From NCBI RefSeq assembly GCF_054482595.1, contig NZ_CM137008.1: a stretch of 64,000 nt of DNA. The stretch is one strand, 5' to 3'. The notes beneath the pieces are model-generated. The model searched no databases, had not been told where the DNA came from, and saw nothing but the letters and a program-made list of their open reading frames with translations. Each line of letters opens with the position of its first letter. Position 1 is the stretch's first letter. Position numbers and translations under genes: made by a program. Below, piece by piece: positions 19,620 through 44,213 of the stretch.

Positions 19620-20579
19620 ATGAAGCCGGAAAACAAACTACCTGTTCTGGACCTTATTTCTGCTGAAATGAAGACCGTTGTGAATACTCTTCAGCCGGAT
19701 TTACCGTCCTGGCCCGCAACGGGAACGATTGCTGAGCAACGACAGTATTACACGCTTGAGCGCCGATTCTGGAATGCGGGCGCTCCAGAAATGGCAACCA
19801 GAGCTTACATGGTTCCAACAAAATATGGGCAGGTGGAAACACGTCTCTTTTGTCCGCAGCCAGATAGCCCGGCGACGCTATTTTATTTGCATGGAGGCGG
19901 TTTTATTCTCGGCAATCTCGATACCCACGATCGCATCATGCGCCTGCTGGCAAGCTACAGCCAATGTACGGTGATTGGTATTGATTACCCCCTTTCACCT
20001 GAAGCGCGTTTTCCGCAAGCGATAGAGGAAATTGTGGCTGCTTGTTGTTATTTCCACCAGCAGGCGGAGGATTATCAAATCAATATGTCCCGCATTGGCT
20101 TTGCCGGTGATTCCGCAGGTGCCATGCTGGCGCTCGCCAGTGCGTTGTGGTTGCGTGATAAACAGATCGATTGCGGTAAAATTGCGGGTGTTTTGCTGTG
20201 GTATGGGCTTTACGGATTACGGGATTCCGTGACTCGTCGTCTGTTGGGCGGTGTCTGGGATGGCTTAACGCAACAGGATTTGCAGATGTATGAAGAGGCG
20301 TATTTAAGCAACGACGCGGACCGCGAGTCACCGTATTACTGTCTGTTTAATAATGATCTCACTCGCGAAGTTCCGCCCTGTTTTATTGCCGGGGCGGAGT
20401 TCGATCCGCTGCTGGATGACAGCCGTCTGCTTTACCAGACGTTAGCGGCGCATCAGCAGCCCTGTGAGTTCAAACTCTACCCAGGTACGCTGCATGCCTT
20501 TTTGCATTATTCACGAATGATGAAAACCGCCGACGAGGCTCTTCGCGACGGCGCTCAGTTCTTTACCGCTCAGCTTTAG
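19620..20579 (+). CDS. aes: Acetyl esterase Aes (HSL-family alpha/beta hydrolase)
   Basis: 319-aa ORF with HGGGF oxyanion motif and GDSAG nucleophile elbow. Confidence 0.95.
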
Positions 20580-21538
20580 CGATACGCGGCAACAAGATTA
20601 GCCATCATTTCGATATGTTCCGGCGTGGCATTAAGCGCTGGAATATATTCATATTTTTTCCCGCCGGCACCGAGGAAGACCTCACGGTTTTGCTCGGCAA
20701 TCTCTTCCAGCGTCTCCAGACAATCCGCAGCAAAGCCCGGGCACATCACCTGTATATGACCTACGCCTTTTTCTCCGAGCATTTTCAGCGTTTCGTCGGT
20801 ATAAGGCATCAGCCAGGGTTCCCGGCCAAAGCGCGACTGAAAGGTCATCATCACTTTTTCCGGTGCCATCCCCAGTGCGGAAGCCAGTTCGCGAGTCGTT
20901 GTGCGGCAACGTTGCGGGTAATCATCGCCTTCATCTGCATAACGCTGGGGAATGCCATGATAAGAGAGCAGCAGCAGATCCGGTTCGCCATGTTTGGCAA
21001 AAGAAGCGCGTACGCTGTTCGCCAGTGCATTAATGTAATCGTGGTTATCGGCGTAATCACGAATAAACGATATCCCCGGAATGCTACGTTTGCGCGCCAG
21101 AATGCGTGCCAGTTCATCCCATACCGCACCGACCGTAGAACAGGAGAATTGCGGATAAAGCGGCAGCACCACAATATGATCTACATGCTCTGCCAGGAGT
21201 TCATCGACGGCGCTTTCCAGTGATGGCGAGCCGTAGCTCATGCCCAGCGCTACGGGCGTATCCGGTAAACGTTGTGCCAACGCCTGCTGTTGCTGGCGGC
21301 TGTAAACCATCAGCGGCGAGCCGTCTTCCATCCAGACCGAGGCGTACAGCTTCGCCACACGCGGCGAGCGCAGCGGCAAAATCACGCCGCGCAGCAACGG
21401 CCACCATAACAACCGTGAGGTATCAACCACGCGTCTGTCGCTTAAAAATTGTTTCAGATAGCGTTTTACCGCTTCAGGTGTGGGGGCATCGGGCGTACCC
21501 AGGTTTGCCAGCAGGATACCGGTTTTAGTCTGACGCAT
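20576..21538 (-). CDS. hemH: Ferrochelatase
   Basis: 320-aa ORF; ferrochelatase family; its stop overlaps the aes stop by 4 nt (convergent). Confidence 0.93.
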
Positions 21539-21712
21539 TACCGCCTCTTATCGATTCAACTTGTTGATAATTGTAGCGGAAAAGTGAGGAAGAAGAACTA
21601 ATTGCTGTGAGAGGTCAAATCAGAAAAAGGAATAGCGCAGATTGAGGTTTTTGTAAAAGGCCGAATGAATATCCGGCCTGAGATTGCTGATAAGTTTGCT
21701 TGTGCGGGCCTG

Positions 21713-21758
21713 TTCCCCTCACCCTAACCCTCTCCCCGAGGGGGCGAGGGGACTGTCC
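21713..21758. repeat. GC-rich imperfect palindrome (Box C-like intergenic repeat) between hemH and adk
   Basis: cccctcaccctaaccctctccccgagggggcgaggggac: runs of CCCCTC / GAGGGG in dyad arrangement. Confidence 0.5.
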
Positions 21759-21773
21759 GTGCGCGCTTTCGAA

Positions 21774-22490
<717 letters not shown>

Positions 22491-22560
22491 TCAAGAAAGG
22501 CACCTGAGGCTGAAACGGTTAATGGCGAGATAATTTGCGGAAAGTGCAGATGATGAAAAG

Positions 22561-22593
22561 AAAAATGCCGGATGACACAAAGGTCATCCGGCA
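22561..22593 (-). terminator. Rho-independent terminator of htpG
   Basis: Minus strand: stem tgccggatgac, loop, gtcatccggca, then UUUUU (plus aaaaa at 22561-22565), just past the htpG stop. Confidence 0.8.
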
Positions 22594-22598
22594 TGACA

Positions 22599-24473
22599 TC
22601 AGGAAACCAGCAGCTGGTTCATACGACGAATAAACAGGTTCGGATCTTCCAGCGTGCCGCGTTCTGCCAGCAGCGCCTGATCCAGCAGCAGTTCTACCCA
22701 CTCGCTGAACTTCGCTTCATCTTCAGTATCTGCCGCACGTTTCACCAGTACGTGATCCGGGTTCAGTTCGAAGATGTATTTCACTTCTGGCACTTTCTGG
22801 CCCGCCGCAGCGAACAGTTTCGCCATCTGAGTGCTCATTTCGTCCGCGTCGGTCGAAACGATCGCTGGCGTATCGGTCAGACGGTGAGTCAGACGGACAT
22901 CTTTCACGCGCTCGCCGAGCAGGGCTTTCACACGGTCGATGAACGGAGTCAGTGCTTTCTCCGCTTCTTTCGCGCTCTCATCAACTTCGTCAGCCAGTTT
23001 TTCCAGCGACTCGTCAACTTTAGACACCGACTGGAACGGTTTACCGTCGAACTCAGTCAGATAGTTCATCATCCACTCATCGATGCGGTCGGAAAGCAGC
23101 AGAACTTCGATGCCTTTCTTACGCAGCAGTTCCAGGTGTGGGCTGCTCTTCGCTGCCGCATAGCTGTCTGCAGTGATGTAGTAGATTTTCTCCTGCCCTT
23201 CTTTCATGCGGGAAACGTAGTCTTCCAGAGACACGGTCTGCGCAGAAGAATCGGTATAAGTAGAAGCAAAACGCAGCAGTTTGGCGATCGCTTCCTGGTT
23301 AGCGAAATCTTCCGCCGGACCTTCTTTCAGTACCAGGCCAAACTGTTGCCAGAAGGTCTGGTATTTTTCCGCGTCGTCTTTCGCCAGTTTTTCCAGCATT
23401 TGCAGCACACGCTTGGTCAGCGCATTGCGCAGGTTACGCGTTACCGTGCTGTCCTGGAGGATTTCACGGGAAACGTTCAGCGGCAGATCGCTGGAGTCAA
23501 TCAGACCACGCACGAAGCGCAGATAGTTCGGCATGAACTGTTCTGCGTCGTCCATGATGAACACACGCTGGACGTACAGTTTCAGGCCGTGTTTATGATC
23601 ACGGTTCCACATATCCCACGGAGCCTGGGACGGGATGTACAGCAGGCTGGTGTACTCCTGCTTACCTTCAACGCGGTTGTGGCTCCAGGTCAGCGGATCA
23701 TTAAAGTCGTGGGCGATGTGTTTGTAGAACTCTTTGTACTCTTCATCGGTGATTTCCGACTTGTTACGAGTCCACAGCGCCTGCGCTTTGTTGATTTTCT
23801 CCCAGGAGATAACGGTTTCGCCGTCTTTCTCTTCGCGTTTTTCGATCTCTACCGGCAGCGCGATATGGTCGGAGTATTTGCTGATGATGGAACGCACGCG
23901 CCAGTCATCGAGGAACTCGTCTTCGCCTTCACGCAGATGCAGGGTGATTTCAGTACCACGATCTTCTTTGGTGATGTCGGCAACGGTATATTCACCTTCG
24001 CCAGCCGATTCCCAGAAGACGCCGTTTTCTGGTTTTTCGCCTGCCGCGCGAGTACGCACGGTCACTTTGTCGGCCACGATAAACGCAGAGTAGAAACCAA
24101 CACCAAACTGACCGATCAGCTGGCTGTCTTTCGCCTGGTCAGAACCCAGGGATTCGAGGAATGATTTGGTACCGGATTTAGCGATAGTCCCCAGATGGTC
24201 AATCACTTCGTCGCGGGTCATCCCCACGCCGTTATCGGAGATGGTCAGCGTGCGCTTGTCTTTATCGAAAGAGACACGAACGCGCAGTTCGCCATCACCT
24301 TCGTACAGGTCCGGGTTAGATAGCGCACGGAAACGCAGCTTGTCCGCCGCATCGGAGGCGTTAGAGATAAGCTCACGCAGGAAGATTTCTTTATTGGAAT
24401 AGAGAGAATGGATCATCAGGTGCAGAAGCTGTTTCACTTCTGACTGAAAACCACGAGTTTCTTGTCCTTTCAT
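22599..24473 (-). CDS. htpG: Hsp90-family chaperone HtpG
   Basis: 624-aa ORF; GHKL ATPase N-domain ([25 protein letters not shown]). Confidence 0.97.
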
Positions 24474-43220: not shown

Positions 43221-43610
43221 ATGCTGGTTTCTTGCGCAATGCGACTTCACTCGGGCGTTTTTCCAGATTATGCTGAAAAATTACCTCAGGAAGAAAAGAT
43301 GGAAAAAGAAGATTCATTTCCCCAACGCGTCTGGCAAATCGTCGCCGCTATTCCCGAAGGCTATGTCACCACTTACGGTGATGTGGCGAAACTGGCGGGA
43401 TCGCCCCGCGCCGCGCGCCAGGTGGGCGGTGTGTTAAAGCGTCTCCCTGAAGGCAGCACCTTACCCTGGCACCGGGTGGTTAATCGCCACGGCACAATTT
43501 CGCTAACCGGACCGGATTTACAGCGTCAGCGACAGGCATTACTGGCAGAAGGTGTGATGGTATCGGGAAGCGGGCAAATCGACTTGCAGCGTTATCGCTG
43601 GAACTACTAA
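43221..43610 (+). CDS. atl: Alkyltransferase-like DNA-binding protein Atl (YbaZ)
   Basis: Ada/Ogt-like DNA-binding domain (PWHRVVNRHG) lacking the catalytic Cys context; start trimmed to MLVSCAMRL (129 aa), approximate. Confidence 0.82.
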   Translation: MLVSCAMRLHSGVFPDYAEKLPQEEKMEKEDSFPQRVWQIVAAIPEGYVTTYGDVAKLAGSPRAARQVGGVLKRLPEGSTLPWHRVVNRHGTISLTGPDLQRQRQALLAEGVMVSGSGQIDLQRYRWNY

Positions 43611-43630
43611 CCCTCTCCGGGCGGAGAGGG
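43611..43630. terminator. Hairpin between convergent atl and ybaY
   Basis: ccctctccg-ggcg-gagaggg dyad directly between the two stops; no flanking U-tract. Confidence 0.45.
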
Positions 43631-43640
43631 TTAACGTCGC

Positions 43641-44213
43641 TTAATATTGCGTAGGAGCTGGAACTGCCGAAGACGGATTCACCTGAGTTGGTGAAGTCGA
43701 AGGTACGGTAGTCGTTGCACCACCGCTGGCCTGAACCGGCACGGCGGTTTGCTGCACCGGCACCAATGTCAGGTCGGCTTTAGTTCCGCCCTTGTTGATC
43801 ACCGGCTGAACGGTATCGGTAATAAATACCAGTTTGTCATTCACGGTAATCGCCGCACTCAACAGAATACGCGCGTTCGGCTGAACATCTGCCGGATTAA
43901 ATGGCAGAACAAAGCTGAATGGTGACTGTTTACCTTCGGTACGCACCGCTTTCTGCGCCAGCACTTTTGACGGTGCATCGGCTAACGACGCGTCAGAAAG
44001 TGTCACGGTCAGCACAGCATCAGGCGGCAGTGCGACTTTCTGCCGGATCCAGACGGTACCGGAGACATTCGGTTGCTGGATAGCAGGTTGTTGTGTTGCT
44101 GAAATAGACGTATTTGCAGCCGGGGCTGGCGTCTGAATATCCGCGCTTTTATCTGCGCAAGCCGCCAACGCAATCGCAACCGCTAAACCACTGGCCATGT
44201 GCACGAGTTTCAT
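43641..44213 (-). CDS. ybaY: Outer-membrane lipoprotein YbaY
   Basis: 190-aa ORF; lipoprotein signal with lipobox LAAC; Thr/Pro/Gln-rich. Confidence 0.88.
   Translation of the reverse strand: MKLVHMASGLAVAIALAACADKSADIQTPAPAANTSISATQQPAIQQPNVSGTVWIRQKVALPPDAVLTVTLSDASLADAPSKVLAQKAVRTEGKQSPFSFVLPFNPADVQPNARILLSAAITVNDKLVFITDTVQPVINKGGTKADLTLVPVQQTAVPVQASGGATTTVPSTSPTQVNPSSAVPAPTQY

Follow-up and report, generated by a model that had tools for sequence, protein, structure and literature searches.

The GC-rich palindrome between adk and hemH is an already known element, a catalogued copy of the E. coli repeat called BoxC, PIT or TMECO, and is neither a new element nor the terminator of adk. It is very probably a dispensable structured repeat that lies in the adk 3′ untranslated region (UTR) and was brought in together with a derived allele of the intergenic spacer. 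That it has no dedicated function is less certain than its identity with the catalogued copy. What we add to the published description is how frequent the two spacer alleles are among 5,426 genomes, which of them outgroups show to be ancestral, and where the element lies relative to the mapped 3′ end of the adk RNA.

Identity and anatomy of the adk-hemH element

The window, that is the whole 64,000-nucleotide stretch analysed, carries the gene order aes (+ strand), then hemH, adk, and htpG (all – strand). The adk coding sequence, delimited by its open reading frame (ORF) and translation, occupies 21774–22418 with its stop codon at 21774–21776, and hemH, the ferrochelatase gene downstream of it, occupies 20576–21538 with its start at 21538. 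At adk-hemH the window is identical to E. coli K-12 MG1655, in whose annotation adk lies at 497,175–497,819, and coordinates were converted by setting 21774 to 497,819 and 21538 to 498,055. A 256-aa ORF on the + strand (21684–22454) covers the element and runs antisense to adk.

The 235-bp spacer between hemH and adk houses the 39-mer cccctcaccctaaccctctccccgagggggcgaggggac at 21715–21753, within 21713–21758, where the original prediction had placed a GC-rich palindromic sequence. Its claim that the element lies just downstream of adk also holds, the element beginning 23 nt past the adk stop codon. The predicted CCCCTC/GAGGGG dyad is formed by CCCCTC at 21715–21720 pairing with GAGGGG at 21738–21743, and an inverted-repeat search returned an 11-nt arm pair (21714–21724 and 21742–21752) with 91% complementarity.

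A full-text literature search for BoxC, PIT, and TMECO led to the study of Holder et al. (2015, NAR 43:10126, PMC4666352), who list 23 TMECO copies in MG1655 in their Table 1 and equate the TMECO motif with what was earlier named BoxC and later PIT. TMECO no. 6 in the same table is CCCTCGCCCCCTCGGGGAGAGGGTTAGGGTGAGGGG, type “A mm”, at MG1655 497,843–497,878 on the + strand, and their Supplementary Table S2 places it 23 nt from adk and 176 nt from hemH. The reverse complement of the adk-hemH element has this same sequence and these same MG1655 coordinates. The name PIT is said to stand for potential intrastrand triplex elements, a usage attributed to Hoyne and Maher in 2000, and the name BoxC reportedly dates from the 1990s. 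The RepRanger paper on REP sequences does not mention the element.

The 36-nt TMECO/PIT core occupies 21715–21750 on the – strand, as defined by the published table, a pattern match, and a check of its base triads. Read in the adk sense, it consists of one C-rich block, CCCTCGCCCC (21750–21741), followed by the loop CTC, and two G-rich blocks, GGGGAGAGGG (21737–21728) and GGGTGAGGGG (21724–21715), separated by the loop TTA. The three-block pattern published for TMECO, CCCTCNCCC-N3-6-GGGNGAGGG-N3-GGGNGAGGG (Holder et al. 2015, PMC4666352), has one match in the 64-kb window, at 21716–21750 on the – strand, and none in 100 dinucleotide-preserving shuffles. Blocks 1 and 2 pair in Watson-Crick fashion at 9 of 10 positions, the exception (position 6) being a G.A mismatch that corresponds to the published “mm”, while blocks 2 and 3 offer 10 of 10 allowed purine-motif third-strand contacts (G*G, A*A, and T*A). 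With TTA as its second loop and one mismatched triplet, the element belongs to type A (“A mm”). Because the core at 21750–21715 maps exactly onto the coordinates of TMECO no. 6, the element is a catalogued family member and not a look-alike, an identification that we regard as close to certain and as going beyond mere resemblance to BoxC.

As originally proposed, the sequence is a member of a dispersed E. coli intergenic repeat family and is far from unique in the genome. Of 5,426 complete E. coli genomes, 5,407 were matched by a 71-nt query (21696–21766), at 74,124 places in all, with a median of 15 and a range of 1 to 26 places per genome; only 38 places were on plasmids. BoxC loci in E. coli number about 60. 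Since copies at other loci align to positions 7–67 of this query (about 88–95% identity), the full repeat unit, core plus short conserved flanks, measures about 60 bp (21702–21762, – strand). An alignment of ten type-A copies from K-12, namely the adk-hemH copy and nine others taken at their Table 1 coordinates, showed a nearly invariant 36-nt core and conserved flanks, the 5′ one (..gcaCGgACGGTC) about 12 nt long and the 3′ one (AAcag..gca) a few nt. Every one of these copies is intergenic, and each follows the stop codon of at least one neighboring gene. Six sit between convergent genes, two (pstA-pstB and yihS-yihR) are antisense to the local transcript, and one adjoins fabI. A chance GC-rich palindrome unique to this spacer was rejected outright on the shuffles, the number of copies, and the published catalogue entry. 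No RNA family applies: a search of 20500–23000 against Rfam gave chance-level E-values only, the best match at the element being Antizyme_FSE, whose 19 bits fall short of the gathering score of 40 (E = 0.99).

The original prediction had also pointed to a dyad of the same flavor, ccctctccg/gagaggg, between atl and ybaY. The dyad is present at 43611–43630 as the hairpin CCCTCTCC-GGGC-GGAGAGGG (predicted fold –19.7 kcal/mol, z = –3.4), but the likeness to BoxC did not stand. It shares an 8–11-nt word with BoxC, yet has only two blocks, the third being absent, and does not match the three-block pattern; when a 351-bp query comprising the dyad and its flanks was searched, the number of places per genome had a median of 1 and never exceeded 2, and 80% or more of the query was covered in 5,393 of 5,426 genomes. 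Membership in the BoxC family was ruled out on these two grounds, two blocks only and single-copy status, and the dyad is instead a conserved single-copy hairpin. It fills the 21-bp gap between two convergent stop codons, TAA of atl at 43607–43609 and TTA of ybaY at 43631–43633 (– strand), and is probably a bidirectional hairpin shared by the two convergent genes. The perfect palindrome TAACCCTCTCC-GGGC-GGAGAGGGTTA extends over 43607–43633, its outer TAA and TTA being the atl and ybaY stop codons themselves. The window does not come from MG1655 itself: over 43450–43800 it has 99.1% identity with K-12 strains but matches a BL21(DE3) derivative and strain E2865 at 100%.

The element within the adk transcript

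Transcription of adk passes through BoxC and stops 61 nt later at a separate hairpin and U-run. This 3′-end signal (21654–21679, – strand), located by folding and by Term-seq, consists of the hairpin AGGCCGGAU-AUUC-AUUCGGCCU at 21679–21658 and UUUU at 21657–21654. The hairpin lies 35 nt beyond the BoxC core, is followed by UUUUA, and has a predicted free energy of –13.2 kcal/mol (z = –5.0 against shuffles). It had been fixed beforehand that an RNA 3′ end at about 497,937–497,941 would point to the downstream hairpin and one at about 497,880–497,890 to BoxC. The curated Term-seq 3′ ends of Adams et al. (2021, PMC7815308; supplementary file 1) are at MG1655 497,939 and 497,940 (+ strand), in a printed context that breaks between ...CAGGCCGGATATTCATTCGGCCTTTTA and CAAAAACCTC. 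These positions correspond to 21654 and 21653 of the window, 61 nt downstream of the BoxC core. No 3′ end at 497,8xx appears in the curated table, and the Rho-region file of the same study has no entry at 497,8xx or 497,9xx (Adams et al. 2021, PMC7815308). The two ends are classed there as “orphan” and placed at –116 relative to hemH (supplementary file 3; Adams et al. 2021, PMC7815308), in line with a hemH ATG located 116 nt beyond the mapped adk RNA 3′ end. With the mapped end 61 nt beyond the core, the adk 3′ UTR measures 120 nt and includes BoxC, and BoxC is not the terminator. What was published as an orphan 3′ end at 497,939 is thus where this UTR stops. The hairpin and UUUU at 21654–21679, which correspond to MG1655 497,914–497,939, exist only in the longer of the two spacer alleles described below.

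The suggestion in the original prediction that BoxC might act as a terminator therefore fails, and we give practically no credence to rho-independent termination of adk transcription at BoxC. Its GC-rich hairpin, 23 nt past the adk stop codon, would be well placed for this role, but the sequence that follows the core, GAACAGGCCCGCAC, has no U-run, and the mapped 3′ ends belong to the other hairpin. Eight other type-A copies likewise have no curated 3′ end in the Term-seq table over the roughly 20 nt that follow them, which is weak evidence because several of the genes concerned are poorly expressed. Published tests also speak against termination, earlier work cited in Holder et al. (2015, PMC4666352) having found PIT elements without promoter or terminator activity. 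A promoter and terminator consensus scan found nothing in the hemH-adk spacer; the scan requires at least five T residues and so missed the hairpin and UUUU at 21679–21654, and its negative result was therefore not counted against this signal.

Folding of the adk 3′ UTR predicts a hairpin at the element. The 61-nt BoxC unit gives a predicted RNA fold of –32.1 kcal/mol (z = –2.5) in the adk sense and of –35.0 kcal/mol (z = –3.2) on the opposite strand, and for the core alone, folded as single-stranded DNA, the value is –10.5 kcal/mol (z = –2.2). Folding of the 101-nt adk 3′ region as a whole reached only z = –1.6, a value that is uninformative until BoxC and the downstream hairpin are folded separately. 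The adk-hemH copy would accordingly be expected to form a stable hairpin in RNA. For the family as a whole, not for this copy, an isolated TMECO strand was found by CD and NMR to form a stable intrastrand triplex, double-stranded TMECO DNA stays duplex, and no DMS protection was detected in vivo (Holder et al. 2015, PMC4666352). BoxC DNA that becomes transiently single-stranded may fold into a hairpin, or into an intrastrand purine-motif triplex of the kind seen in vitro for the family.

The original prediction had named RNA stability as a second possible role. By this account the BoxC hairpin would slow 3′-to-5′ exonucleases, as REP does, or would modulate read-through into hemH. Transcription of the element inside the adk 3′ UTR, the strength of its predicted RNA hairpin (–32 kcal/mol), and the finding that each of the ten K-12 type-A single copies follows the stop codon of at least one gene are consistent with such a role. 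Against it, a protected decay intermediate would be expected to end at the base of the BoxC hairpin, and the curated table has no 3′ end there; 46% of E. coli genomes and E. albertii lack BoxC here; and copies occur in both orientations to transcription, as the antisense ones in pstA-pstB and yihS-yihR illustrate. Holder et al. (2015, PMC4666352) also found no relation of TMECO to gene class or to distance from genes. A dedicated 3′-UTR function for this copy is, on balance, very doubtful.

Two alleles of the adk-hemH spacer

The adk-hemH spacer exists as two alleles in a ratio near 54:46 (5,426 complete E. coli genomes), of which comparison with outgroups identifies the BoxC allele as derived. 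The long allele, with BoxC and a 235-bp spacer, was found in 2,912 genomes, and the short allele, without BoxC and with a 131-bp spacer, in 2,507; together they account for 5,419 of the 5,426 genomes (BoxC form about 54%, short form about 46%). K-12 and BL21 carry the long form, and O157:H7 strains the short form.

Both alleles and the outgroups have the hemH-proximal 77 bp of the spacer in common (21539–21615). The corresponding query positions 1–77 were matched in all 5,425 genomes and were the only match in genomes that lack the long spacer. Alignment of the long and short forms defines a 158-bp segment specific to the long allele (21616–21773), which includes BoxC and the terminator hairpin; the short allele has in its place 54 unrelated or strongly diverged bp with the hairpin GCAGAUCUGC-UCUCGG-GCAGGUCUGC (predicted fold –20.5 kcal/mol). 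The 30 nt that adjoin the shared region are about 60% identical between the two alleles, and three positions in the last 30 nt of adk differ between them. The non-BoxC part of the long-specific DNA (21612–21701) is single-copy and confined to 2,913 genomes, in 2,900 of which its identity is 99% or higher; for short alleles, identity varies between 94.7 and 100%. Recombination from a diverged lineage, and not any property of BoxC, could have brought in the long allele.

Outgroup spacers were reached through HemH homologs and then aligned. In E. albertii the spacer is the 131-bp short allele. That of E. marmotae measures 190 bp and combines the short-type hairpin with a REP inserted directly past the adk stop codon; Citrobacter has a 141-bp spacer with a REP-like hairpin of its own, and a further relative has one of 128 bp. 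The hemH-proximal 77 bp are conserved in E. albertii, E. marmotae, and Citrobacter. As E. albertii is short and E. marmotae keeps the short-type hairpin, the short type is ancestral and the BoxC form a later replacement; on the evidence of these aligned sequences, the outgroup comparison shows the BoxC-containing spacer to be the derived state, in which an ancestral 54-bp segment with a plain hairpin was replaced. The site directly after the adk stop codon holds a different structured element in each lineage: BoxC, a plain hairpin, a REP, or a REP-like hairpin.

Judged by its distribution among genomes, BoxC is dispensable at adk-hemH. From this dispensability follows the proposal that the copy has no function of its own, and the adk-hemH BoxC would then be a dispensable passenger with no dedicated role in the expression of adk or hemH. 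Allele-specific DNA starts 78 nt upstream of the hemH ATG, so the alleles could differ in upstream regulatory sequence. A TACAAT hexamer on the – strand at 21570–21575, about 32 nt upstream of the hemH ATG and within the 77 bp common to all alleles and outgroups, may be the hemH –10 element, to judge from its sequence. Induction of hemH by OxyR has been reported (PMC8115020); a scan of both spacer alleles with the OxyR consensus gave a best match of 12 of 20 positions, which 74 of 300 shuffles equaled or bettered. The adk gene is a standard MLST locus, and the flank on its 3′ side is sharply different in the two spacer alleles.

Possible mobility, distribution, and comparison with known systems

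Other BoxC loci vary in a similar manner. At tauD-hemB, a BoxC spacer is present in 3,600 genomes; in others, of which E2348/69 is an example, the spacer measures 39 bp and holds a simple hairpin. The BoxC copy at zntA-tusA is close to fixation, and in some strains a REP cluster has been added beside it. Neither adk-hemH nor tauD-hemB, the two loci inspected for this, yielded a clean empty site or a target-site duplication; whole-spacer replacements were found instead. The alternative allele at both loci is a different spacer with its own hairpin, unlike what a MITE-like element would leave. Whole-spacer replacement at the two loci agrees with the raised variability that Holder et al. (2015, PMC4666352) reported around TMECO sites. 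Folding of BoxC may make such sites prone to rearrangement, the link between structure and instability being correlative, and this would fit the whole-spacer replacement polymorphisms at adk-hemH and tauD-hemB. In E. coli MDP9-27, the tauD-hemB spacer is longer by 51 bp at the 5′ edge of BoxC; these bases resemble a truncated BoxC at their start (GTCaCCTCG) and a BoxC 5′ flank at their end (GCACGGACA). The sequence suggests that two BoxC copies were joined here by recombination or slippage.

The family extends far beyond E. coli. A pattern scan across species used one genome per species, and the matches listed span five genomes, with Enterobacteriaceae not among them. The betaproteobacterium Mitsuaria (now Roseateles) chitosanitabida has at least 140 BoxC-pattern copies, with GCTTGC as the first loop and tcttcgggct as the 3′ flank. 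Among the matches listed, a Methylomirabilota MAG has several copies, often as inverted pairs; a gammaproteobacterial Candidatus Contendobacter MAG has copies of which one is almost identical to E. coli type A; and one more MAG has a BoxC-pattern family. Inverted pairs about 30–230 nt apart are common in the distant families among these matches. The blocks are the same in the distant families while loops and flanks are lineage-specific (again among the matches listed), a sharing of blocks that is partly by construction, since 8 of the 9 positions in every block are set by the scan pattern. The 71-nt query also matched 475 of 72,556 plasmid records, including records from Klebsiella, Rhizobium, Sinorhizobium, Azospirillum, and Aeromonas, many of which are megaplasmids or mislabeled chromosomes, and only 3 of 50,697 phage records. 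Two of the phage records, MG065686.1 and MG065691.1, are 174-kb Campylobacter phages with three BoxC-like matches each (88.5% over 52 nt); such matches are odd for phages this AT-rich, and contamination or a chimeric assembly may explain them.

This distribution bears on whether BoxC is a non-autonomous mobile element, or the site of a conserved enzyme as REP is for RAYT, with the adk copy as an insertion. The family is multi-copy and dispersed, varies from 1 to 26 copies between strains, shows the same three blocks in high-copy families of the betaproteobacterium, the gammaproteobacterial MAGs, and the Methylomirabilota MAG, and has matches on plasmids and chromids of Klebsiella, Rhizobium, Sinorhizobium, and Azospirillum, all of which would suit mobility. 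The absence of clean empty sites and target-site duplications at adk-hemH and tauD-hemB argues against it, as do the near absence from phage records and the lack of any identified associated gene; to our knowledge, no transposase is associated with BoxC. Holder et al. (2015, PMC4666352) found no association of TMECO with transposons, phages, or plasmids. Taken together, we consider mobility of this kind unlikely.

The preferred reading, a dispensable repeat carried in with its spacer, leaves one feature to account for. Identity of the blocks across distant phyla, as read from the sequences, suggests a sequence-specific constraint that a purely passive passenger does not explain. By analogy with REP, which is the recognition site of RAYT transposases, BoxC might be the recognition or processing site of a widespread mobilizing or DNA-binding protein, and the adk copy its footprint. 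The same blocks with lineage-specific loops and flanks would fit such a site, a proposal to which we assign a low probability. Conservation of the three blocks across phyla is nevertheless the most useful lead on the role and spread of BoxC.

Comparison with known systems places the adk-hemH element squarely in the BoxC/PIT/TMECO family, from which it shows no difference at the level of the element: it has the three blocks and the type-A TTA second loop with a mismatched triplet, is intergenic, belongs to a multi-copy dispersed set, and occupies a strain-polymorphic locus. With intrinsic terminators it shares a GC-rich hairpin soon after a stop codon, but it is without a U-run and the mapped 3′ end lies elsewhere, at the hairpin and UUUU of 21679–21654. 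REP and BIME sequences resemble BoxC in being short, GC-rich, dispersed extragenic palindromes, often located past stop codons and co-transcribed in 3′ UTRs; the REP of E. marmotae takes the same spot after adk as BoxC does, and a REP cluster adjoins the zntA-tusA BoxC in strain FY10. The sequences are nevertheless unrelated, BoxC being built of three blocks (one C-rich and two G-rich) and REP of a simple stem, and E. coli has about 15–25 BoxC copies but hundreds of REPs. Finally, blocks 2 and 3 of BoxC constitute a purine-rich mirror repeat with 10 of 10 third-strand contacts, like the mirror repeats that form H-DNA or purine-motif triplexes; the BoxC triplex differs in being an intrastrand fold of one strand and not a structure within duplex DNA, and its formation in vivo was not detected by Holder et al.
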